In this document: positions 6,217 to 61,651 of the stretch, piece after piece
Layout of the letters: each line of letters opens with the position of its first letter
Numbering within the stretch: position 1 is the first letter of the stretch
Origin: an uncultured Peptoniphilaceae bacterium
GTDB lineage: Bacteria; Bacillota; Clostridia; Tissierellales; Peptoniphilaceae
Reading direction: 5' to 3'
DNA: 64,000 bases
Assembly: GCA_964461305.1 (NCBI GenBank)
Contig: CAYWTV010000002.1
Coordinates: 56,942-120,941 of the forward strand
Program-made: the position numbers and the translations under genes
Notes under the pieces: generated by a model
What the model was told of the DNA's origin: nothing
Databases searched by the model: none
Seen by the model: the letters and a program-made list of their open reading frames with translations, nothing else

Positions 6217-7884
6217 ATGAAAAACACGAATAAACTAAGATTCATTCCAATTGGTGGAATGAATGAAATAGGAAAGAATATGTTTGTAATCGAGTATAGA
6301 GACGATATGATTATAATCGATTGCGGCATGACTTTTCCTGAAGAACAAATGCTGGGAATAGATGTGGTAATACCTGATTTCTCGTATTTGCAAGAAAACA
6401 AACATAAGATAAGAGGTATGGTGTTGACCCATGGTCATGAAGATCATATTGGGGCAATACCATATTTCATGAAAGAAGTAGGAAATGTAGATATTTATGG
6501 AACTGCTTTAACACTTGGATTATTAAAAAATAAATTACAAGAACATAAATTATCAGATGCTAAACTCCACAGAGTTTCATATGGAGATATTTTAAAACTT
6601 GGGAAAATGGAAGTAGAATTTATACAAACTACCCATTCAATCCCTCAAAGTTCAGCAATAGCAATTAGAACTCCACAAGGAAATATCATCCATACAGGAG
6701 ATTTTAAAGTGGACTTTACTCCAATAGATGGAGATGGAATAGACTTAAATAGACTGGCCCAATATGGAGCAGAAGGTGTTGAATTATTAATAAGTGACTC
6801 TACAAATGCCCATAGAAAAGGATATACTATGAGTGAGAAAGTAGTAGGCCAAACATTTGATAATCTATTTGCTAAACATCAGGACAAAAGAATTATAGTT
6901 GCTACTTTTGCATCTAATGTCCATAGAGTTCAACAAATAATAAATTCTGCAGAAAAATATGGAAGAAAAATAATTTTATCTGGTAGATCTATGTTAAATG
7001 TTGTAGGAACTGCTAGAGAATTAGGACTTATAAAAGTTGAAAAAGACACTATTGTAGATATTAATGAAATGCACAAATTCGATCCTAATGAATTGACATT
7101 TATTACTACTGGATCACAAGGAGAACCCTTTAGTGCTTTAACTAGAATTTCAAATGGAGAGCACAAAAAGATTCAAGTTACTAAAGACGATGTAGTAATA
7201 TTATCTGCTAGTTCAATTCCTGGTAATGAAGTTGCTATAAATGGAGTAATAAACAACTTAATGGAAAAAGGGACAGAAGTAATTCATCAAACCCTTTCAG
7301 AAATTCACGTATCAGGCCATGCCTGTGAAGAAGAGCTAAAGTTAATAATGAGTCTTACAAAACCAAAGTATATTTTGCCATTCCATGGTGAAATGATGCA
7401 AATGAAGGCTCATGAAAAAATAGCTCACAAAATGGGAATTCCTGAAGAAAATGTAATGATGATTGCAAATGGTGATGTATTAGAACTTGATCACAATGGA
7501 ATGAAGGTTAGTTCTTCTGTTCAAGCTGGTGCTGTATTAGTAGATGGCCTAGGTATTGGTGATGTTGGAAATATTGTTTTAAGAGATAGAAAATGGTTAT
7601 CTGAAGATGGTCTAATTATAGTAGTAGTAACTTTATCTAAGAAAACAGGAAAAGTAGTATCTGGACCTGATATTGTATCTAGAGGATTTGTATATGTTAG
7701 AGAATCAGGAGATTTAATGACAGATGCCAAAGAAGTAGTAAGAAGAACATTACAAAGCTTAGAAAGCAGAGGTAATTCAGATTGGAACACCTTAAAGACT
7801 GAAATCAAAGACGATTTAAAGGACTTTATAAACAAAGAAATGCAAAGAAAACCAATGATATTACCTATAATTATGGAAGTATAA
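6217..7884 (+). CDS. rnj: Ribonuclease J
   Basis: 555 aa. Metallo-beta-lactamase motif THGHEDHIGAIPY, beta-CASP region and RNase J C-terminal domain. Confidence 0.93.
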   Translation: MKNTNKLRFIPIGGMNEIGKNMFVIEYRDDMIIIDCGMTFPEEQMLGIDVVIPDFSYLQENKHKIRGMVLTHGHEDHIGAIPYFMKEVGNVDIYGTALTLGLLKNKLQEHKLSDAKLHRVSYGDILKLGKMEVEFIQTTHSIPQSSAIAIRTPQGNIIHTGDFKVDFTPIDGDGIDLNRLAQYGAEGVELLISDSTNAHRKGYTMSEKVVGQTFDNLFAKHQDKRIIVATFASNVHRVQQIINSAEKYGRKIILSGRSMLNVVGTARELGLIKVEKDTIVDINEMHKFDPNELTFITTGSQGEPFSALTRISNGEHKKIQVTKDDVVILSASSIPGNEVAINGVINNLMEKGTEVIHQTLSEIHVSGHACEEELKLIMSLTKPKYILPFHGEMMQMKAHEKIAHKMGIPEENVMMIANGDVLELDHNGMKVSSSVQAGAVLVDGLGIGDVGNIVLRDRKWLSEDGLIIVVVTLSKKTGKVVSGPDIVSRGFVYVRESGDLMTDAKEVVRRTLQSLESRGNSDWNTLKTEIKDDLKDFINKEMQRKPMILPIIMEV

Positions 7885-10435: not shown

Positions 10436-10563
10436 TGTAAGGTAAGTTAAAAGTAGAAGTACCGCTTCTCACCTCGTGGCCAAGGCCTATAGGTTACAAT
10501 TAGTTATTTATGATAGTAATTTTTTGTGCGGGTACTTTTTGTATCCGCACATATTTTATTTCC
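10436..10563 (+). promoter_or_regulatory. L20-leader-type transcription attenuator upstream of infC-rpmI-rplT
   Basis: Terminator hairpin GTGCGGGTAC/GTATCCGCAC (10526-10550) followed by ATATTTTATTT. The upstream AGTACCGC (10459-10466) can alternatively pair with the terminator 5' arm. The position matches the Firmicute L20 leader. Confidence 0.6.
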
Positions 10564-10575
10564 GGGGGTGTAAAT

Positions 10576-11088
10576 ATAAAGGAATTAAAGATTAACGAGG
10601 ACATTAGGGATAAAGAAGTTAGATTGATTGACCAGCACGGTGAACAATTAGGAGTAATCCCAACAGCTAGAGCTCAAGAACTTGCTCATGAAGCTGAGTT
10701 AGATTTAGTGTGTGTATCGCCAAATGCAAAACCTGCAGTATGCAAGATTTTAGATTATGGAAAATACAGATACGATCAACTAAAAAAGGAAAAAGAAGCT
10801 AAAAAAGCTCAGAAACAAATTAACGTAAAAGAAGTTAGGATGACACCTAATATTGATACGCATGATTTAAATGTTAAAGCTAAACAGGCTGATAAATTCC
10901 TAACTGGGGGAGATAAAGTTAAAGTCTCAGTTAGATTCAGAGGAAGAGAAATGGGACATACAGACCAAGGTCGTGTGGTTTTAGATGAGTTTCTAGAAAT
11001 CCTTGGAGATAAAGCTACTGTTGATAAAAAACCAAAAATGGAAGGTAGGAATATGGTAATGCACCTTAATCCTACAAATGATAAATAG
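10576..11088 (+). CDS. infC: Translation initiation factor IF-3, probably starting at a non-AUG codon (ATA 10576)
   Basis: KINEDIRDKEVRLIDQHGEQLGV matches the IF-3 N-terminus. RBS GGGGGTG (10564-10570) lies 5 nt before ATA. The ORF-track ATG at 10510 lies inside the leader, upstream of the attenuator hairpin. Product is about 171 aa, typical for IF-3. Confidence 0.85.
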   Translation: MKELKINEDIRDKEVRLIDQHGEQLGVIPTARAQELAHEAELDLVCVSPNAKPAVCKILDYGKYRYDQLKKEKEAKKAQKQINVKEVRMTPNIDTHDLNVKAKQADKFLTGGDKVKVSVRFRGREMGHTDQGRVVLDEFLEILGDKATVDKKPKMEGRNMVMHLNPTNDK

Positions 11089-36551: not shown

Positions 36552-37028
36552 ATGAATATAGAATTTTTTAAAGAATTGTTTAAAAGAACAGGTTATGGAA
36601 TGGTCCAATTAATTAAAGGGATGGTGTTTTCTTCTGTTATAAATTTTGTGATTATTGCTATTGGATTAAAAATAGCTAATGTTCCTTATTATGGACTTAT
36701 TGCATTTGCAATAGCTATTGCAGATTTATTACCTGTATTAGGAGCGGGTATAGTATTAATACCTTGGGCTATTATTTCATTAGTCACTGGAGAGGTCTCT
36801 CAGGCAATCACTTTGGTGATTTTATATGTGATAACATTTTTTGTAAAACAAATCATAGAGCCTATAATATTAGGTAAAAGTATAGGTTTAAAACCATTAT
36901 ATACCTTAGGTATAACTGCTATTTCTATGATTATTTTGTCCCCAGCAGTTGGGGCTATAGTTGGTGCTATTATTTCAGTAGTTGTTGCAGCTTTTTTAAA
37001 TTTAAGAGATAGTAAAAGAGAAAACTAA
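36552..37028 (+). CDS. Half-size AI-2E/YtvI-like membrane protein (corresponds only to the C-terminal half of the family)
   Basis: 158 aa. IADLLPVLGAGIVLIPWAI...KQIIEPIILGKSIGLKPL matches the AI-2E C-terminal core. No N-terminal half lies upstream. Confidence 0.6.
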   Translation: MNIEFFKELFKRTGYGMVQLIKGMVFSSVINFVIIAIGLKIANVPYYGLIAFAIAIADLLPVLGAGIVLIPWAIISLVTGEVSQAITLVILYVITFFVKQIIEPIILGKSIGLKPLYTLGITAISMIILSPAVGAIVGAIISVVVAAFLNLRDSKREN

Positions 37029-37049: not shown

Positions 37050-37078
37050 TTGACAAAACCCTTTGATTATTGTAATCT
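37050..37078 (+). promoter_or_regulatory. Sigma-A-type promoter of the aspS leader
   Basis: TTGACA (37050-37055), a 17-nt spacer, then TAATCT. Confidence 0.5.
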
Positions 37079-37092
37079 TTATAGGTATAAAA

Positions 37093-37329
37093 CTGTGAAC
37101 AGAAGAGTAAATTATATTGTAAATTTAAGCGAGTCGATTATGGTGTAAGTTCGATATGGAGATATAATTGAAAAACATCTGGGAGTTTCTAACTGAAATT
37201 ATAGTAGGATTAGAAGTTATTTGCACTTTACGCAAAATATAATTAAGTGGATTATCTATTTAGATAATCAATTTGGGTGGTACCGCGAAATTTAAACCTT
37301 CGTCCCTTTGTGGAAATGAAGGTTTTTTT
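37093..37329 (+). promoter_or_regulatory. T-box riboswitch leader; the specifier reads as AAC (Asn)
   Basis: Stem I has a K-turn/GA motif (GTGAACAGAAGAGTA), AG-bulge-like AGCGAG and distal-loop TGGTGTAAG. The specifier-loop 3' strand is GAAAAACA (37170-37177), closed by the CAGA/TCTG helix. The canonical T-box AATTTGGGTGGTACCGCG lies at 37270-37287. The terminator is AAACCTTC...GAAGGTTT plus T7 (37294-37329). Confidence 0.88.
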
Positions 37330-37352
37330 ATATTTAAAAAAGGAGTGAGATT

Positions 37353-39461
37353 GTGAAAAAAGACTATACAAGGAGTCATTATTGTGGAAGAATATCAGAA
37401 TCTGATATAGATACGAGTGTAACTGCAATGGGCTGGGTTCATACTAATAGAGATATGGGCGGAATTATTTTTATAGATTTAAGAGATAAATCTGGTATTT
37501 TGCAAGTGGTTTTTGATTCTAAGGATTTTTCAGAAGAAGAATTTTCTGAAATAGAAGGACTTAGAAATGAATATGTAATAGCAGTTTCAGGAAATATAAG
37601 GGAAAGAGATGAGGAAACTTACAATCCTAAAATTCCAACTGGAACAGTAGAATTAAAAGCAAAAGATTTTAAAGTTTTATCTAAGTCTAAAACTCTTCCA
37701 TTTCCAATAGATGACAATGTGGATGTTAGAGAAGATTTAAGAATGAAACATAGATACTTGGATTTGAGACGTCCAAAAATGTACAAAAACTTCTTACTTC
37801 GTAACAATACTTTAAGAAGTATTAGAAGATTTTTAGAAGATAATGAATTTATGGAAGTGGAAACTCCTATACTAACTAAAAGTACACCAGAAGGAGCTAG
37901 AGATTATCTAGTACCTAGTAGAGTTCACCAAGGAGAATTTTACGCCCTACCTCAGTCTCCCCAAATATTTAAACAATTACTAATGGTATCGGGCTTTGAT
38001 AAATATTACCAAGTTGCCAGATGCTTTAGAGATGAAGATTTAAGGGCAGACAGACAACCTGAGTTTACTCAAATAGATATGGAAACTTCATTTTTATCTC
38101 AAGAAGAAATTCTAAATTATTTAGAAAAATTATTCAAAAACGTATTTAAAGAAGTAATGGGAATAGATTTTAAAGAGCCTTTCCCAAGGATGACCTATCA
38201 AGAAGCAATGGACAATTACGGATCAGATAAACCTGATATTAGATTTGGCCTTAAAATAGTAGATGTAACTGAAGAGATAAGATCATCTAGCTTTAAGGTT
38301 TTCACTGATACTTTAAAATTAGATGATGGAAGTGTTAGAGCTATTAATATTAAAGGTGGTAATGCCTTTACAAGAACTGAAATCGAAGATATGACTGAGT
38401 ATGCTATCTCCCAGGGTGCTAAGGGAATGGCTTGGATTGCAATAGACAATGATGGCAATTTAAGAACTATTTTAACTAAATACTTCTCAGAAGAAGATAT
38501 GACAAAGTTATTAGAAAAAATGGAAGCTAAACCTGGAGATTTAATAATTTTTTCTGCTGATAAATTAGAAGTAGTTTACAAAACATTAGGAAACTTAAGG
38601 CTTTATGTTGGAGATAAATTAGGTCTTAGGAAAAAAGACGACTATAAATTCTTGATGGTAGTAGATTTTCCTCAATTTGAATATTCTGAAGAAGAAGATA
38701 GATACGTAGCTATGCATCATCCTTTTACTATGCCAGTAGAAGAAGACATTCAGTATTTAGAGTCTGATCCATTAAAGGTAAGAGCTCAATCTTACGATGT
38801 GGTACTAAATGGTATAGAGCTTGGAAGTGGTAGTTTAAGAATTTATAGAAGTGATATCCAAGAGAAGATGTTTAAGCTCCTAGGTATTAGCGACGAAGAA
38901 ATTCAAAGACGTTTTGGATTTATTATTGAAGCTTTCCAATACGGTACTCCACCACACGGAGGATTTGCATTTGGTTTAGATAGATTAATAATGTTAATGG
39001 CAAAAGAAGATAGTATCAGGGAAGTAATAGCATTTCCTAAAAATAGAGATGCTCAATGTCTTTTATCAGAAGCTCCAAGTACTGTAGATGATTCTCAACT
39101 TGAAGATTTAGGAATTGGAATAGTTGGAGAAAATGGTTTTATTAAAGAATCTAAATCAGTTAAAGAAGTAGCTACTGAAAAATTAGAAGATATTAAGAGC
39201 TATGCAGATATGTCTATGTTAAATATTGATGAAGTAAATGAAGTTAGATTTAAAACCTATATTAATGACTTTATAGATTTAACAAAAACTTTAAGAGAAC
39301 TTGATTTAACAGAGTATGAGCCTACAGTAAATATTCACCCAGTTGACAATACATTTAGAAAAGATATTGTACAAGAAGAATTTTCAAGGGATGAATTATT
39401 AGGAAGTTCTTATACTGACGAGACAGGACATATATTAGTTCCTCGATTAATTGAAGATTAG
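37353..39461 (+). CDS. aspS: Aspartate--tRNA ligase (bacterial type, likely non-discriminating) with a C-terminal GatC-like domain fused in frame
   Basis: 702 aa. The AspRS body carries motif 2 FRDEDLRADRQPEFTQIDME and motif 3 GGFAFGLDRLIMLM. Residues about 607-702 (nt 39171-39458) align with GatC (LDLTEYEPTVNIHPVDNTFRKD, ETGHILVPRLIED). GTG start with RBS AGGAG. Confidence 0.9.
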   Translation: MKKDYTRSHYCGRISESDIDTSVTAMGWVHTNRDMGGIIFIDLRDKSGILQVVFDSKDFSEEEFSEIEGLRNEYVIAVSGNIRERDEETYNPKIPTGTVELKAKDFKVLSKSKTLPFPIDDNVDVREDLRMKHRYLDLRRPKMYKNFLLRNNTLRSIRRFLEDNEFMEVETPILTKSTPEGARDYLVPSRVHQGEFYALPQSPQIFKQLLMVSGFDKYYQVARCFRDEDLRADRQPEFTQIDMETSFLSQEEILNYLEKLFKNVFKEVMGIDFKEPFPRMTYQEAMDNYGSDKPDIRFGLKIVDVTEEIRSSSFKVFTDTLKLDDGSVRAINIKGGNAFTRTEIEDMTEYAISQGAKGMAWIAIDNDGNLRTILTKYFSEEDMTKLLEKMEAKPGDLIIFSADKLEVVYKTLGNLRLYVGDKLGLRKKDDYKFLMVVDFPQFEYSEEEDRYVAMHHPFTMPVEEDIQYLESDPLKVRAQSYDVVLNGIELGSGSLRIYRSDIQEKMFKLLGISDEEIQRRFGFIIEAFQYGTPPHGGFAFGLDRLIMLMAKEDSIREVIAFPKNRDAQCLLSEAPSTVDDSQLEDLGIGIVGENGFIKESKSVKEVATEKLEDIKSYADMSMLNIDEVNEVRFKTYINDFIDLTKTLRELDLTEYEPTVNIHPVDNTFRKDIVQEEFSRDELLGSSYTDETGHILVPRLIED

Positions 39462-39475
39462 GAAGGAGTATAAAT

Positions 39476-40657
39476 ATGACATTACAAGAAAGATTTAAAA
39501 ACTACTTTGATAAAGTGGAAAAAGAAAATACCGAGACTCCTTTTTATAAAACATTAAGGAGAGATGAAGCATTAAAAGAATTTTCAGAAAATGAAAATGC
39601 CTTTGGAATAGTTTTATCAGATAGTATTTCTACTAAAGATGTAAAAACTACAGCGAATTCAAAAATGTTAGAAAATTACGTTCCAGCATTTGATGCAACA
39701 GTAGCGAAAAAATTAAAAGATGCAGGTGGAGTTTTACTAGGAAAAACTATAACTTTAGAATTTGGAGTTGGGGAAGCTGAAACGACTTTTGGTACTAATA
39801 TTGCAGTTGATAAAGGCGAGGATATTATAGGACTGACTATAGATTCTAAAGGTTTTATGCATTTAGGAGCATTTGAATTTGGCCTAAAAGCATTTACACC
39901 AACTTTCGGTTTAGTTTCAAGATACGGTCTTTTAGTAGTTGCATCATCAATAGATAGAATTGGTATATTAGCTAAGGATTTTAAAGAAATTCAAAAGGCT
40001 ACATCTATAATAGTTGGAAAAGATGAAAAAGACTCTTTATCTATAGAATCAACTGATGATTTTAAGGATTTAGAAGACTTAAATTTATCTAAATTAACAG
40101 TAGCAAAGTTAGATAAATTTGGTCATTTTGTTGAAGAAGCTGAATTTTTAGAAAGCTTAAATATAAATGTAGAAGAAAAAACCGTTTCGAATTTAGAATA
40201 CTCTTTACCAACTTATGAAATACTTTCTAGTGGAGAGTTTGCAACTAATATGGAAAAATATGACTCAATAGGATTTGGCCATAGAACAAATAGTTATTCC
40301 AGTTTAGATGAATTATATAAAAACTCCAGAACTGAAGGATTTGGAAGAGGCGTACAAGAAAAAATTGTATTTGGAAACTTTGTTTTAAGTGAAAACCAAT
40401 ATGAAAATTATTATGTTCAAGCTATGAAAGCAAGAACTTTAATTAGAGATAGTTTTTATAAGGTTTTAGAAGATACTGAATTTTTAATTGCACCTATTAG
40501 TTTATATTATACAGCAGGAATTAATTTATCAGGACTTCCTTCTATTTCTATACCTTATGGCAATGAGGGGATACTAATAACTACTAGGGCATTTAACGAC
40601 AAGAGATTATTAAGCTTTGCTAAAGAGCTAATAAAAGAAATGGACGGTGAAAAATAA
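39476..40657 (+). CDS. GatA-like amidase-fold protein lacking the catalytic triad (predicted glutaminase-inactive)
   Basis: 393 aa, collinear with GatA (TTANSKMLENYVPAFDATV, VSRYGL, ASSIDRIG, SRTEGFG, NLSGLPSISIP). IKDN is replaced by LSDS. The PGGSSGGSAAAVA segment is deleted (about 20 aa). DTGGSIR is replaced by DSKGFMH. Confidence 0.8.
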   Translation: MTLQERFKNYFDKVEKENTETPFYKTLRRDEALKEFSENENAFGIVLSDSISTKDVKTTANSKMLENYVPAFDATVAKKLKDAGGVLLGKTITLEFGVGEAETTFGTNIAVDKGEDIIGLTIDSKGFMHLGAFEFGLKAFTPTFGLVSRYGLLVVASSIDRIGILAKDFKEIQKATSIIVGKDEKDSLSIESTDDFKDLEDLNLSKLTVAKLDKFGHFVEEAEFLESLNINVEEKTVSNLEYSLPTYEILSSGEFATNMEKYDSIGFGHRTNSYSSLDELYKNSRTEGFGRGVQEKIVFGNFVLSENQYENYYVQAMKARTLIRDSFYKVLEDTEFLIAPISLYYTAGINLSGLPSISIPYGNEGILITTRAFNDKRLLSFAKELIKEMDGEK

Positions 40658-42081
40658 TGGCTAAAAATTATGAAACTGTCATGGGATTAGAAGTCCATGT
40701 GGAATTAAAAACTAATACAAAAATATTTTGTAATTGTTCAACAGAATTTGGTGGAGATCCTAACGAACACACCTGTCCTGTTTGTCTAGGTCTTCCAGGA
40801 GCATTACCAGTACTAAATGAAAAAGCTAAAGACTATGCAGTTATGGCTGGACTTGCAACAAATTGTGAAATTACAAGAAGGGGAAAACAAGATAGAAAAA
40901 ACTATTTTTATCCTGATTTAGGTAAAGGATATCAAATTTCCCAAGGAGATAATCCAATTTGTTATAACGGTTATTTAGATATTGAAACTTCAGAAGGTAA
41001 AAAAAGAATCAGAATTAACAGAATTCATCTAGAAGAAGATGCTGGAAAGTTAGTTCATGCTGAAGGGATAGGAAGCTTAGTAGATAATAACAGATCAAGT
41101 ATGCCCCTTGTGGAAATAGTTTCTGAACCAGATTTAAGATCTGCAGAAGAAGTTATAGCATATTTACAAAAACTTCGAGCTAACTTAACATACATTGACG
41201 TTTCAGATGCAAAAATGAACGAAGGATCTTTTAGATGTGATGTTAACTTATCAGTTAGAGAAAAAGGCTCTGATATTTTAGGAACTAGAGTAGAAATGAA
41301 AAACTTAAACTCTTTTCAATCAATTCAAAGGGCAATTGAATTCGAAGCAAATAGACAAATAAAAGCTATTGAAAATGGAGAAGAATTGTTCCAAGAAACT
41401 AGAGGGTATAATCAAGATCAAAAGAGGACATTTTCTATGAGAAGAAAAGAAAATGCCACAGATTACAGATATATGCCTGATCCTGATTTAATGCCAATTG
41501 TAGTTACAGATGAGGATATAAAAAGAATAAAAGAGTCTCTTCCAGAACTGCCAGATGCAAGAAAAGAAAGATACGTTGAAGAATACGAACTATCTAACTA
41601 CGATGCTGAAAAACTAATTTCATCAATAGAAGTTGCAAACTTTTTTGAAGAAGCAGCTAAAACTGGTGCGGATCCTAAAACTCTTGCAAATATAATAACT
41701 ACTGATATTTTTAGACTTACAAGTCCTGAAGATTTTAATGTGAATTTTGAAGCTTCTAAATTAGGAGAAATAGTTCAATATATTGAAGAAGGTAGAATAA
41801 ACCTTAGTAGTGCTAAGAAAATAATTGAAACTCTCTTTGAAGATAATACTAAATCTCCAGAGGAGATAATTTCAGAACAGGATTTAGAACAAATTAACGA
41901 TGAAAATCTCTTATCAGAAATCATTGATGAGGTATTAGTTAAAAATCAAAAGGCTGTTGAAGAGTATAAATCTGGAAAGGAAAAGGCAATTCAATCTATA
42001 ATTGGTCAAATTATGGGAAAAACTAAAGGAAAAGCCAACCCTTCTTTGACAATAGATATTATAAAGAAAAAAATCAAATAA
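40657..42081 (+). CDS. gatB: Asp-tRNA(Asn)/Glu-tRNA(Gln) amidotransferase subunit B
   Basis: 474 aa with GLEVHVELKT, CPVCLGLPGALPVLN, DRKNYFYPDLGKGYQISQ, HLEEDAGK and a YqeY-like tail. The start overlaps the upstream stop (TAATG). Confidence 0.95.
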   Translation: MAKNYETVMGLEVHVELKTNTKIFCNCSTEFGGDPNEHTCPVCLGLPGALPVLNEKAKDYAVMAGLATNCEITRRGKQDRKNYFYPDLGKGYQISQGDNPICYNGYLDIETSEGKKRIRINRIHLEEDAGKLVHAEGIGSLVDNNRSSMPLVEIVSEPDLRSAEEVIAYLQKLRANLTYIDVSDAKMNEGSFRCDVNLSVREKGSDILGTRVEMKNLNSFQSIQRAIEFEANRQIKAIENGEELFQETRGYNQDQKRTFSMRRKENATDYRYMPDPDLMPIVVTDEDIKRIKESLPELPDARKERYVEEYELSNYDAEKLISSIEVANFFEEAAKTGADPKTLANIITTDIFRLTSPEDFNVNFEASKLGEIVQYIEEGRINLSSAKKIIETLFEDNTKSPEEIISEQDLEQINDENLLSEIIDEVLVKNQKAVEEYKSGKEKAIQSIIGQIMGKTKGKANPSLTIDIIKKKIK

Positions 42082-42091
42082 AATATATTCA

Positions 42092-42130
42092 AATAGTAGT
42101 TTTAGTAAGCCTAGAACTACTATTGTGTTT
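42092..42130 (+). terminator. Intrinsic terminator after gatB
   Basis: 14-bp stem AATAGTAGTTTTAG / CTAGAACTACTATT, then GTGTTTT. Confidence 0.7.
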
Positions 42131-42229: not shown

Positions 42230-44641
42230 ATGAAAGAATATAATCACAAAGAAGTAGAGAAAAAGTGGCAAGAAAAGTGGGACAATGAAAAAACTTTTCA
42301 CTGTGAAATAGATACATCAAAGGAAAAATTCTATGCATTAGTAGAATTTCCATATCCATCAGGAGACGGGCTCCATGTAGGTCACGCAAGACCGTATACG
42401 GCACTAGACATTATATCCAGGAAGAAAAGATTAGAAGGTTATAATGTATTGTATCCTATGGGATGGGATGCTTTTGGATTGCCTACGGAAAACTATGCCA
42501 TAAAAACAGGAATACATCCTAAAATAGTTACTAAAAAAAATGTTGCTAATTTCAAATCCCAATTAAAATCAATCGGTTTTTCCTTTGATTGGGACAGGGA
42601 AATTAATACTACAGATCCAGAGTATTATAAATGGACACAGTGGATATTTATAAAACTCTTTGAAAAAGGTTTAGCTTATAAAAAGGAAATGCCAATAAAT
42701 TGGTGCCCATCTTGTTTAGTTGGTCTTGCAAATGAAGAGGTTATTCAAGGAACCTGTGAAAGATGTGGTTCTGAAGTAGAGCAAAAAGTTAGAAGTCAGT
42801 GGATGCTTTCTATTACTAAATATGCAGATAGATTGTTAAATGATTTGTCTGAGGTAGATTATTTTAATAGAATTAAAGCTCAACAAGAAAACTGGATTGG
42901 AAAATCAGTTGGGGCAGAACTTGAATTTAAAATTAAGGACAAAGAAGATTCTTTAAAGGTATTTACTACTAGACCAGATACAATTTATGGAGCAACTTAT
43001 ATGGTAATAGCTCCAGAACACGATATTATAAATAAATATTCTCATATTATAAAAAATGTGGACGAAATAGAAGAATATAAACACAAAGCATCTCACCTTT
43101 CTGAATTTGAAAGAACAGAACTTGTAAAAGAAAAAACAGGTGTTGAAATCCAAGGTTTAAAGGCTATTAATCCATTTAATCAAAAGGAAATGCCAATTTG
43201 GATATCAGACTATGTACTTTCCACTTATGGAACTGGAGCTATTATGGCAGTACCAGGTCATGACGAAAGGGACTACGAATTTGCTAAAAAGTTTAATTTA
43301 GAAATTATACAAGTTGTTGATGGAGGAGATATTAAGGAAAGTGCTTATACTGATATTGAATCTGGAAAGATGATAAATTCTGATATATTAAATGGACTAT
43401 CCGTTCAAGATGCTATAGATAAAGCAATTGAATATGCTGTTGAGAATAATTTTGGAAAAAAACAAATCAACTTTAAGTTAAGAGACTGGGTATTTTCTAG
43501 ACAAAGATATTGGGGAGAACCAATTCCAATTGTTCATTGCGAAGAATGTGGATATGTTCCAGTTCCTGAAAGTGAATTACCTTTAACTTTACCTGAGGTT
43601 GAAACTTACGAACCATCAAAAGACGGTAGTTCTCCACTTTCTAAAATGGACGATTGGGTAAATACAACTTGTCCAAAATGTAATAAACCAGCTAAAAGAG
43701 AAACCGACACTATGCCTCAATGGGCAGGTTCTTCTTGGTATTTTATGAGATATATTGATCCTCACAATGATAATGAATTAGCCTCAAAGGATGCACTAGA
43801 TTATTGGTTAAGTGTAGATTGGTATAATGGAGGAATGGAACATACAACTCTTCATTTACTTTATTCTAGATTTTGGTATAAGTTTTTATACGATATTGGA
43901 GTTGCTCCTACGAAAGAACCTTATAAAAAAAGAACATCCCACGGTATGATTTTAGGTTCTGATGGTGGAAAAATGAGTAAATCCAGAGGAAATGTATTAA
44001 ATCCAAACGATATTGTAGATGAATATGGAGCTGATACCTTAAGAACTTATGAAATGTTTATGGGAGACTTTGAAAAAAGTGCGCCATGGTCTACAGAAAG
44101 TTTAATAGGCACTAGGAGATTTTTAGATAGAGTTTGGAATTTACAAAATATTTTAGTTCCTGGAGATGAATATTCAAAGGAATTTGAAGTTGATTTTCAT
44201 CAAAGTATTAAAAAGGTAACTGAAGATTATGAATCTTTAAAATTTAATACTGCAATTGCTCAACTAATGACTTTGCAAAATCTTTTGAATAAAAAAGGAG
44301 AAGTAAATCATAAAGAGTTTAAAACTTATTTAACTTTATTAAATCCTGTAGCACCACATATTACAGAAGAAATATGGAGCTTAAATGATTTTGAAGGAGA
44401 AATATCTTCTCAAAAATGGCCTGAATATATAGAAGAAAAAACAAAAAGAGATGAAGTGGAATATCCAGTTCAACTTAATGGTAAGGTTAAAATGAAAATT
44501 ACTGCTCCAAGGAATGCAACCCAAGAAGAAGTAAAAAAATTAGTTTACAACTCTGATGAGGGTAAGGAATTATTCAAAGGAAAAGAAATAATAAAAGAAA
44601 TATTTGTACCTGGTAAAATATTCAATGTAGTGGTAAAATAA
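42230..44641 (+). CDS. leuS: Leucine--tRNA ligase
   Basis: 803 aa with the HIGH-type [14 protein letters not shown] and the CP1 editing domain. Confidence 0.97.
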
Positions 44642-48793: not shown

Positions 48794-49666
48794 ATGATTA
48801 TTGAAAAGACAAATATTATATTTAATATGAACAAAGACAATGAACCTGTTATGAAATGTAGTAGTGGAGATGAGGTAGTTTTTAAAACATGTGATTGTTT
48901 TAGTGATACTATAAAAAGTGAAAAAGATTTAGTAAGTGGGATTGATTTTGAAAGAGTAAATCCAGCTACAGGTCCTTTATATATTAAGGAAGCTAATGTA
49001 GGAGATGTTTTAAAAGTAACAATAAACAGTATAAAATTAGATAATAAGGGAGTAGTTGTAACAGCTTCAGGCTTAGGAAGACTAAAGTCTCATATTAAAG
49101 ATGAGGAAACTGTTGTTTGTAATATAGAAGGAAACTATTTAAATTATAAAGGCATAAAAATACCCCTTAGAAAGATGATTGGAGTTCTTGGAGTTTCTCC
49201 TAAAAATGATAAGATTTCAACTGGTAATCCTTATGATCACGGTGGGAATTTAGATTGTATAGAGGTTACAGAAGGATCTAGTATTTATCTGCCAGTTAAT
49301 GTTAAAGGAGCTTTACTTTCCTTAGGAGATTTACACGCTACTATGGGTGATGGAGAAATAATGGGTAGCGGATTAGAAATTTCTGGAGAAGTTGAAGTAA
49401 AAGTTGAAGTTTTAAAGGATTTTGATTTTAATCTTCCTATTATTGAAACTAAAGATAAATGGATAACTTTAGGCTCAAGGGAAACTATGGAAGAGGCTAG
49501 CGATTTGGCAATTTGTAATATGGCAGATTTAATTATGAAAAAATCTAATTTTTCATTAAACCAAGCTGGAATGTTAATATCTTTAGCAGGTGATTTAAGG
49601 GTTTGTCAGATGGTCAATCCTCATATAACAATGAGAGTAGAAATAAGTAAAGATATAATCAATTAA
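48794..49666 (+). CDS. Acetamidase/formamidase family protein
   Basis: 290 aa with NPATGPLYIKEANVGDVL and GDLHATMGDGEI, typical of the FmdA/AmdA family. Confidence 0.8.
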   Translation: MIIEKTNIIFNMNKDNEPVMKCSSGDEVVFKTCDCFSDTIKSEKDLVSGIDFERVNPATGPLYIKEANVGDVLKVTINSIKLDNKGVVVTASGLGRLKSHIKDEETVVCNIEGNYLNYKGIKIPLRKMIGVLGVSPKNDKISTGNPYDHGGNLDCIEVTEGSSIYLPVNVKGALLSLGDLHATMGDGEIMGSGLEISGEVEVKVEVLKDFDFNLPIIETKDKWITLGSRETMEEASDLAICNMADLIMKKSNFSLNQAGMLISLAGDLRVCQMVNPHITMRVEISKDIIN

Positions 49667-61207: not shown

Positions 61208-61651
61208 ATGTCTTTAAAAGCACTCCTAATGGATGATCTTAAAACTTCCATGAAGAATAAGGACACTCTAAGGAAAAATACCATAACAATGGTAAGAGCT
61301 GGAATAAAACAAGTAGAAGTCGACGAAAGAATTGAACTCGATGATGATGGAATTATTCAAGTTATAAATAAACAGCTCAAGGAAAAGAGAAATTCAATAG
61401 AAGAATTCAAGAAAGGTAATCGTGATGACTTAGTTGAACAAGCTGAGGCAGAAATTGACATACTTCTTGAATATTTACCAGAACAACTTACTGAGGAAGA
61501 ATTAACTGTTATTGTTAAGGATGTACTTGAAAAAGGTAACTATACTTCAATGAAAGACATGGGAAGTATAATGAAAGATGTAATGCCTAAAATTCAAGGA
61601 AGAGCCGACGGCAATATGGTTAATCAAATCGTTAGAAAACTTTTAGTGTAA
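61208..61651 (+). CDS. yqeY: GatB/YqeY domain-containing protein
   Basis: 147 aa with DLKTSMKNKD and the LEYLPEQLTEEEL pattern. Conserved rpsU neighbour. Confidence 0.88.
   Translation: MSLKALLMDDLKTSMKNKDTLRKNTITMVRAGIKQVEVDERIELDDDGIIQVINKQLKEKRNSIEEFKKGNRDDLVEQAEAEIDILLEYLPEQLTEEELTVIVKDVLEKGNYTSMKDMGSIMKDVMPKIQGRADGNMVNQIVRKLLV

Follow-up and report, generated by a model that had tools for sequence, protein, structure and literature searches.

An AspRS-GatC fusion in an Asn T-box operon: a probable tethered, glutamine-independent Asn-transamidosome

Can an aminoacyl-tRNA synthetase and a tRNA-dependent amidotransferase be joined covalently in nature, and can such an assembly do without glutamine? 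These questions are raised by a locus in a 64,000-nucleotide (nt) stretch of DNA from an uncultured Peptoniphilaceae bacterium (GenBank assembly GCA_964461305.1, contig CAYWTV010000002.1, positions 56,942 to 120,941 of the forward strand), referred to here as the window. At this locus, the aspartyl-tRNA synthetase (AspRS) gene aspS runs on in frame into a GatC-like tail. Transamidosomes are thought to keep mischarged Asp-tRNA-Asn from escaping into translation, and to our knowledge they have so far been described only as non-covalent, often transient complexes. The fused gene, termed aspS::gatC, is followed by an altered gatA, termed gatA*, and by gatB. This natural fusion within an asparagine (Asn) T-box operon is probably a tethered Asn-transamidosome that works independently of glutamine, its nitrogen coming probably from free ammonia.

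A complete GatC domain behind a complete AspRS

The fused open reading frame (ORF) and the two genes behind it were delimited as follows, in window coordinates.

37353 to 39461, + strand: fused aspS::gatC, 702 amino acids (aa), GTG start
37353 to 39122, + strand: AspRS body, residues 1-590, with OB anticodon-binding domain, class II catalytic core and GAD insertion
39123 to 39182, + strand: linker, residues 591-610 (GENGFIKESKSVKEVATEKL), about 20 aa, predicted to be flexible
39183 to 39458, + strand: GatC domain, residues 611-702 (TIGR00135, PF02686), followed by the stop codon TAG at 39459-39461
39462 to 39475, + strand: spacer of 14 nt, holding a GGAG ribosome-binding site for gatA*
39476 to 40657, + strand: gatA*, a 393-aa GatA-fold protein without amidase catalytic residues (pseudo-glutaminase)
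40657 to 42081, + strand: gatB, 474 aa, apparently intact

The GTG start codon of the fused gene is preceded by AGGAG at 37341-37345. Residues 5-590 matched two AspRS equivalogs end to end, NF001750 with 861.7 bits (cut-off, 443 bits) and TIGR00459 with 798 bits (cut-off, 373.85 bits), and the body contains the Pfam domains PF01336, PF00152 and PF02938 of a bacterial-type AspRS. This part was also predicted with confidence in an AlphaFold monomer model of the fusion. The linker is rich in K, E, S and G and differs in length by a few residues among relatives. At residues ~588-610 it is the least conserved stretch of the fused family, with a mean column conservation of 0.38-0.39, and residues 595-611 are predicted to be disordered, with a predicted local distance difference test score (pLDDT) of <50 in the monomer model.

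The tail comprises a full GatC domain, joined in frame behind a complete AspRS. The original prediction, made from the sequence alone, had read the 702-aa aspS ORF as a body of AspRS length, a linker of about 20 aa and a GatC-like tail; its coordinates (39171-39461, equal to residues 607-702), its linker sequence and the three GatC motif correspondences that it quoted are correct. It had also proposed a search of the tail against GatC profiles, and both curated models were matched above their cut-offs. Residues 611-701 aligned with positions 3-93 of the 93 positions of TIGR00135, at 55.6 bits for the tail alone and 51.5 bits for the whole protein (cut-off, 47.1 bits), and PF02686 gave 33.2 and 29.3 bits, respectively (cut-off, 23 bits). 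The best sequence matches of the tail in the Protein Data Bank (PDB) were the GatC chains 4wj3_C, 3h0l_C and 2df4_C, from Pseudomonas aeruginosa, A. aeolicus and S. aureus, all aligned end to end. A profile built from 20 fused tails retrieved 18,295 proteins at E<=1e-3 from 1.84 billion representatives, and its top matches were mostly free-standing proteins of ~95 aa aligned over residues 3-95, that is, GatC. Fused proteins of ~700 aa were not among the listed matches of this search, which gives no census of fusions in other lineages because fused clusters at 50% identity are probably represented by ordinary AspRS.

The tail shows low identity to single GatC proteins (20% with the GatC of the canonical operon in the related locus L001; E-values of 0.002-0.1 in single-sequence PDB searches), as might be found if it were an unrelated helical appendage, such as a tRNA-binding or oligomerization tail. 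This explanation is very improbable. Both curated profiles were passed over their full length, the tails of relatives scored 61-82 bits on TIGR00135, the tail profile retrieved thousands of free GatC proteins end to end, and the gatA-like and gatB genes that always follow the tail come without a separate gatC. A non-GatC identity of the tail is refuted as far as homology goes.

The tail is the sole gatC of the window, standing in order before the gatA-like and gatB genes. A six-frame scan of all 64 kb found no second GatC-like sequence, and the 14-nt gap, in which the original prediction had seen no place for a separate gatC, was confirmed at 39462-39475. An internal start yielding free GatC was rejected, since no ATG in the linker is both in frame and preceded by a ribosome-binding site. 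In the AlphaFold monomer model, the tail was mostly unstructured and undocked from AspRS, as expected of GatC without its partners. Among relatives, one fused subgroup (P0041-P0047, P0050, P0063 and P0064) carries an altered GatC C-terminal strand motif, ending in GYILLENGSN or GYILLEKGKE rather than the usual GYILVPxxIE.

AspRS usually comprises ~590 aa and gatC is usually a separate gene before gatA, as at 299-583 in L001, and the loss of a stop codon, a frameshift or an assembly error could in principle have joined a normal aspS to a separate gatC. Such an artefact has next to no chance of being the explanation, and the comparative data refute it. The search for AspRS proteins of >680 aa in related taxa that the original prediction had suggested found many: among the 120 best database matches, every full-length protein (118 proteins of 680-745 aa) has the fused architecture, at 56-100% identity, and nearly all of them carry a precomputed GatC domain. 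About 110 further fused clusters came from a second search with the deep-branching protein of L026, bringing the total to >200 protein clusters from independent assemblies. The fusion occurs in the same reading frame in isolate genomes and on long contigs, in 20 GTDB species representatives and in the cultured Clostridia Fusibacter paucivorans and Acetoanaerobium pronyense. No aligned fused protein has a stop codon in the linker region. The conserved frame and architecture thus exclude a missed stop or an indel.

The order aspS::gatC, gatA-like gene, gatB is kept wherever the contig is long enough, in ~30 loci. In a neighbour-joining tree of AspRS bodies, 26 distinct fused proteins formed one clade against 59 unfused Bacillota AspRS, which points to a single origin of the fusion. 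When the window was compared with its 80%-identical relative L087, the NG86 ratio of nonsynonymous to synonymous substitution rates (dN/dS) was 0.06 for AspRS, 0.16 for the linker plus GatC, 0.11 for GatA* and 0.075 for GatB, rough values given a synonymous rate (dS) of 1.0-1.6, near saturation. All parts of the module are clearly under purifying selection.

GatA*, a GatA-fold protein without the glutaminase residues

The original prediction had called the gene behind the fusion GatA-like. The GatA fold is borne out; the prediction had overlooked the shortened and apparently dead state of the protein, the Asn T-box ahead of the operon and the presence of the fused architecture in annotation resources. 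GatA* scored 148.7 bits on PF01425 and 245.8 bits on TIGR00132 (gatA), below the cut-off of 481.1 bits for the latter. Its AlphaFold model is compact, with a pLDDT of 91.5 and a predicted template-modelling score of 0.91, and the closest Foldseek structures are the GatA chains 9a62_A, 4wj3_A, 2df4_A and 3h0l_A, with template-modelling scores of 0.86-0.88.

Alignments of GatA* with solved GatA chains and with canonical GatA of the same clade revealed the loss of the amidase-signature Ser-cisSer-Lys triad and of the Gln-binding Arg358, all of which are intact in the controls. In S. aureus numbering, GatA* has Ser for Lys79 of KDNI, Phe for the nucleophile Ser178 of DTGGSIR and Lys for Arg358, and a deletion of ~20 residues takes out the PGGSSGGS loop with its cis-Ser (S154). 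We take the roles of K79, S154 (GGSSGGS) and the Gln-binding Arg358 to be those described for S. aureus GatA in the 2006 work of Nakamura and colleagues. A second deletion of ~20 residues lies near the C-terminus. Ser178 is a catalytic residue of GatA (PMC2330236). A set of 19 related loci shares the absence of Lys79, of the GGSSGGS loop and of Arg358, and in all of these but L009, L015 and L018 Ser178 is gone as well. By these losses, GatA* is predicted to be catalytically dead as a glutaminase.

Even so, GatA* is not a decaying protein but one kept folded and under purifying selection. In the window's group its length is 393-395 aa in 12 of 13 loci and 387 aa in the remaining one (L014), at 49-80% identity.

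The distribution of the two states suggests an order of events. Full-size GatA (479-491 aa in complete genes) follows AspRS::GatC in deep branches of the fused family (L023, L024, L025, L026, L090, and the Fusibacter and Acetoanaerobium loci L088 and L089), where every readable GatA catalytic position is intact, as are the catalytic residues in canonical operons. The dead state and the same deletion are common to a Tissierella-type group (412-440 aa) and to the window's group (mostly 393-395 aa), which are sister clades in the AspRS tree. Since the deep fused branches keep a normal GatA, the fusion would have come first and the glutaminase been lost later; the most parsimonious reading is that the fusion was followed by one loss of the glutaminase site.

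The partner gene gatB, by comparison, looks complete. It scored 641.8 bits on NF004012 (cut-off, 338 bits), 397.7 bits on PF02934 and 138 bits on PF02637, as a member of the GatB family that has both the catalytic cradle and the YqeY-like tail. Its motifs GLEVHVEL, DRKNYFYPD, HLEEDAGK, EIVSEPD and RCDVNLS align with those of solved GatB chains, at 329-362 bits over 300 aa. A free-standing YqeY of 147 aa, a paralogue of the GatB C-terminal tail, is encoded elsewhere in the window (61208-61651; PF09424, 163.8 bits).

The Asn T-box operon and its predicted product

The transcription unit consists of a T-box(Asn), aspS::gatC, gatA* and gatB. Its regulatory features are the following.

37050 to 37078, + strand: promoter-like site, TTGACA at 37050-37055 plus an A/T-rich -10 region, upstream of the leader
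37086 to 37310, + strand: T-box leader riboswitch, Rfam RF00230, 125.6 bits (gathering score, 93), full model 1-219
37174 to 37176, + strand: specifier codon AAC (Asn), from the cmscan alignment, context GAA-A-AAC-A
37274 to 37287, + strand: antiterminator T-box sequence TGGGTGGTACCGCG, overlapped by the terminator hairpin
37294 to 37329, + strand: T-box terminator hairpin AAACCTTC ... GAAGGTTT and T run, read from the sequence
42092 to 42124, + strand: terminator-like hairpin at the operon end, a 14-pair stem with a T-rich tail, before leuS at 42230

All parts of a T-box are present, namely the specifier loop, TGGGTGGTACCGCG and the hairpin with its T run, and the 3' end of the Rfam match falls within the terminator hairpin. 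The context GAA-N-AAC-N recurs in 14 leaders of related loci. AAC is invariant while the flanking N varies among A, G and T, which identifies the specifier as Asn. In the aligned leaders, U or C stands at the T-box position pairing with the tRNA discriminator, which in bacterial tRNA-Asn is G73; both bases are compatible with it. The T-box is thus predicted to sense uncharged tRNA-Asn. A second codon overlaps the specifier, reading GAA (Glu) in several relatives (context GAAGAAC) and AAA (Lys) in the window. CTTGACA stands at the place of the promoter-like site in L003, L007, L008, L009, L014, L018, L023, L024 and L026 by alignment; a simple consensus scan of the + strand did not list TTGACA at 37050-37055, and the site is therefore put forward as a putative promoter. 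Downstream, the gatA* stop and gatB start codons overlap by 1 nt, indicating translational coupling. In the related locus L005, a 63-nt unit repeated 2.5 times in tandem (93% matches) occupies the place where a T-box would lie (7703-7862), with a similar sequence in L012.

The AspRS is presumably non-discriminating, charging tRNA-Asn too, in the context of an Asn-specifier T-box and amidotransferase genes in one operon. No second AspRS, AsnRS, GlnRS or AsnA/B gene was found within the 64-kb window, and no canonical gatCAB was seen in the window or in the visible regions of its closest relatives.

In the mechanism that we propose, the AspRS part would charge tRNA-Asn with aspartate. The GatC tail, on its flexible linker of ~20 residues, is joined to AspRS by its N-terminus, which leaves its C-terminus free, and this C-terminus would wrap GatA* and GatB as that of free GatC does. 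GatC is required for GatA folding and GatB binding (PMC2330236), and its C-terminal hairpin pairs with a GatB hairpin (PMC7541841). Each subunit of the AspRS dimer would carry its own amidotransferase, with one pair of GatA* and GatB clamped by each of the GatC tails. The result would be a permanent, covalent Asn-transamidosome of fixed 1:1 stoichiometry, with two copies of each protein, in which Asp-tRNA-Asn could be handed directly to GatB for phosphorylation and amidation. GatA* would have been kept as a folded scaffold after losing its glutaminase site. We infer the ammonia donor, the charging of tRNA-Asn and the physical assembly of the complex.

The source of the amide nitrogen is likewise conjectural. 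Since GatA* as predicted cannot hydrolyse glutamine, the nitrogen would most likely come from free ammonia, a plausible donor in amino-acid-fermenting anaerobes of digesters and guts, from which most of the related assemblies come. In a related amidotransferase, NH4Cl bypasses the glutaminase step, and a weakened GatA site even raised that activity (PMC4027206). For the window's own lineage, we hold free ammonia as the donor with somewhat less than even confidence.

Several observations weigh against an ammonia-fed transamidosome. A canonical gatC-gatA-gatB operon with intact GatA lies a few kb or less upstream of the fused operon in L001 (299-3470) and L021 (2387-5550), and these genomes thus hold two sets of amidotransferase genes. 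A sub-clade (L005, L010-L013, L015 and L016) has no T-box motif before the fused gene. The specificity of the AspRS is not plainly written in its sequence either. Bernard and colleagues are said to have reported in 2006 that H31 and G83 mark the non-discriminating AspRS of P. aeruginosa; at the aligned positions, the window AspRS has Met35 and Glu. In the discriminating AspRS of E. coli these residues are Leu and Lys, and the first of them is His in both P. aeruginosa and M. tuberculosis. The fused family has Met35 without exception, and the two positions match neither the discriminating nor the non-discriminating pattern. Finally, a dead GatA may mean that the complex is no amidotransferase at all.

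This last point can be taken further. The operon might be a relic or have a new job, with GatA* and GatB no longer amidating and with either only AspRS mattering or GatB, GatA* and GatC serving as a tRNA-binding or regulatory accessory. Every glutaminase catalytic residue is gone, as such a history would allow, and a complete canonical gatCAB, near at hand in some relatives, could do all of the amidation. We consider this quite unlikely, however. GatB is under stronger purifying selection than GatA* and keeps all of its catalytic-cradle motifs, the length of GatA* is held with a dN/dS of 0.11, and start and stop codons are translationally coupled. The Asn-specific T-box is also kept before the operon in lineages with a dead GatA, which makes sense only if the products raise tRNA-Asn charging.

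Alternatively, another protein might supply the nitrogen to the tethered complex, either an asparaginase acting like GatD or a canonical GatA swapping in from the second operon, which adjoins the fused one in L001 and L021. An asparaginase-family gene lies directly upstream of the T-box in three of the four Tissierella-type loci with enough upstream sequence (L001, L003/L017 and L018). Its positions are given below; the products (PF00710) have 323-328 aa, with the TGGT and HGTDT motifs intact.

L001, 6463 to 7434: asparaginase-family gene
L003, 6644 to 7630: asparaginase-family gene
L017, 4635 to 5621: asparaginase-family gene
L018, 4554 to 5540: asparaginase-family gene

These asparaginases score ~200 bits on GatD models, and archaeal GatD is an asparaginase homologue that gives ammonia to GatE (PMC2330236). 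However, no asparaginase was found in the 64-kb window or in the fetched flanks (up to 6-8 kb on each side) of the window's own group. Where present, the gene lies outside the T-box-controlled unit, and its product lacks the GatD N-terminal domain, aligning with positions 75-402 of 420. A canonical GatA swapping in would, moreover, leave no reason for selection on GatA*. Nitrogen supply by another protein is thus unlikely overall, and a dedicated asparaginase partner in the Tissierella-type relatives, as a GatD-like solution, has a slight chance. Both the protein-donor and the lost-function explanations rank below free ammonia.

Two further observations were made at these loci. A gene for a sodium:dicarboxylate symporter lies close by in L001 and L003 as well and is not present in the window. 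The AspRS::GatC, GatA* and GatB of L017 (CABMKH010000005.1) gave the same blastp scores as those of L003; the record bears the title 'Varibaculum timonense', a name from the Actinobacteria, and the label looks wrong.

The tethered, ammonia-fed reading would have consequences for the pathway as a whole. The module may be a third kind of tRNA-dependent amidotransferase, a glutaminase-less GatC-A*-B tethered to AspRS that makes Asn-tRNA-Asn without glutamine, a proposal to which we give nearly even credence. The dead but conserved GatA is the more surprising part, as it would part the scaffold role, holding GatC and GatB, from the catalytic role and would imply a glutamine-independent indirect pathway. 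If true, such a route would suit ammonia-rich, energy-limited, amino-acid-fermenting anaerobes by saving the ATP of glutamine synthesis. According to a 2008 review, glutamine-independent formation of Asn-tRNA-Asn was known only via AsnA and AsnRS (PMC2330236); the route proposed here would be the first indirect one. The fusion itself would be a natural, ancient and widespread covalent version of the transamidosome, its tether fixed by evolution across a whole branch of the Clostridia, and could offer a stable complex of defined stoichiometry for structural and kinetic work.

Comparison with known systems, annotation and neighbouring features

The bacterial Asn-transamidosomes of Thermus thermophilus (3KFU), P. 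aeruginosa (4WJ3) and Helicobacter pylori (PMC3367201) have the same four protein components and the same presumed pathway, in which AspRS makes Asp-tRNA-Asn and GatB amidates it without release. Among solved structures, the anticodon-binding domain of the window AspRS is most like that of the non-discriminating P. aeruginosa enzyme of 4WJ3. These complexes are non-covalent, and dynamic in H. pylori, whereas here GatC is a covalent part of AspRS. Their GatA is an active glutaminase, whereas GatA* has no catalytic residues.

Three further systems share single traits with the fused module. A GatC-GatA fusion selected in Mycobacterium smegmatis likewise joins GatC covalently to a pathway component, but that mutation arose in the laboratory and occupies the C-terminus of GatC. 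It leads to mistranslation and, by prediction, to a disturbed contact with the GatB hairpin; no natural gatC-gatA fusion was found in ~500 species (PMC7541841). Unlike in that mutant, GatC is tethered here by its N-terminus with the C-terminus free, in a fusion that is ancient and under selection. Archaeal GatDE also pairs a GatB-type kinase/transamidase with no amidase-family GatA (PMC2330236), and an asparaginase-family gene adjoins the operon in some relatives of the window. In that enzyme, however, GatD serves as a dedicated subunit and carries an additional N-terminal domain, and neither GatA nor GatC accompanies GatE, whereas GatA* and GatC are kept here. The GlnRS-YqeY chimera of Deinococcus radiodurans (PMC1865053) is likewise an aminoacyl-tRNA synthetase with an amidotransferase-derived C-terminal domain, but its appendage is a paralogue of the GatB tail that aids tRNA binding in the direct pathway and recruits no amidotransferase.

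Loss or change of function in a GatA-family protein has a counterpart in the 'vestigial' AtzE-AtzG complex (PDB 6C62/6C6G), one of the structural matches of gatA*, in which a GatA-family protein retains a GatC-like partner after a change of function. AtzE, however, is an active amidase with a new substrate and no link to GatB or tRNA, whereas GatA* has no active site and stays in a gatB operon.

The nearest regulatory parallel comes from another member of the Clostridia. Saad and co-workers are said to have described, in J Biol Chem in 2012 and in PNAS in 2013, a T-box-controlled aspS2-gatCAB operon of Clostridium acetobutylicum. This operon reportedly also combines AspRS and amidotransferase genes behind a T-box with the specifier AAC (Asn), and the overlapping GAA (Glu) codon of GAAGAAC in several relatives of the window is as in that leader. 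Unlike in the fused module, its gatC is reportedly a separate gene and its GatA a normal glutaminase.

The fusion architecture itself is already recognized by annotators. NCBIfam NF009460 (PRK12820), 'bifunctional aspartyl-tRNA synthetase/aspartyl/glutamyl-tRNA amidotransferase subunit C', describes the same architecture at ~700-720 aa, and UniRef calls the proteins of the isolates 'Multifunctional fusion protein'. Placement of the window protein or of the deeper-branching fused proteins in NF009460 was rejected: the window protein scored 657.1 bits and five relatives, among them L001, L023, L024 and L026, 620-685 bits, about half the cut-off of 1379 bits. They share the architecture and belong to a different family, from another lineage. 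Full-text literature searches turned up no description of an AspRS-GatC fusion in nature or of a GatA devoid of catalytic activity. In NCBI annotation, the fused gene is named plain 'aspartate--tRNA ligase' and GatA* is 'hypothetical' or 'amidase family protein', and pathway reconstructions will consequently report gatC and gatA as missing when they are not.

Other features of the window were noted in passing. Just upstream of the leader, a 158-aa ORF (36552-37028) is similar to the AI-2E transporter family over no more than the C-terminal half of the profile (179-319 of 327). A 347-aa membrane-protein ORF at 64-1107 appears by eye to be a full-length relative of this transporter-like ORF, and the short ORF is possibly a truncated copy. 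Another gene, at 48794-49666, encodes a 290-aa protein of the acetamidase/formamidase family (PF03069) whose best match spans only the C-terminal part of the profile; it could be an amidase that releases ammonia, and nothing evident links it to the operon. A ribosomal protein L20 leader (RF00558, 73 bits) lies at 10445-10562, at the start of an ORF (10510-11088) taken by eye for infC.

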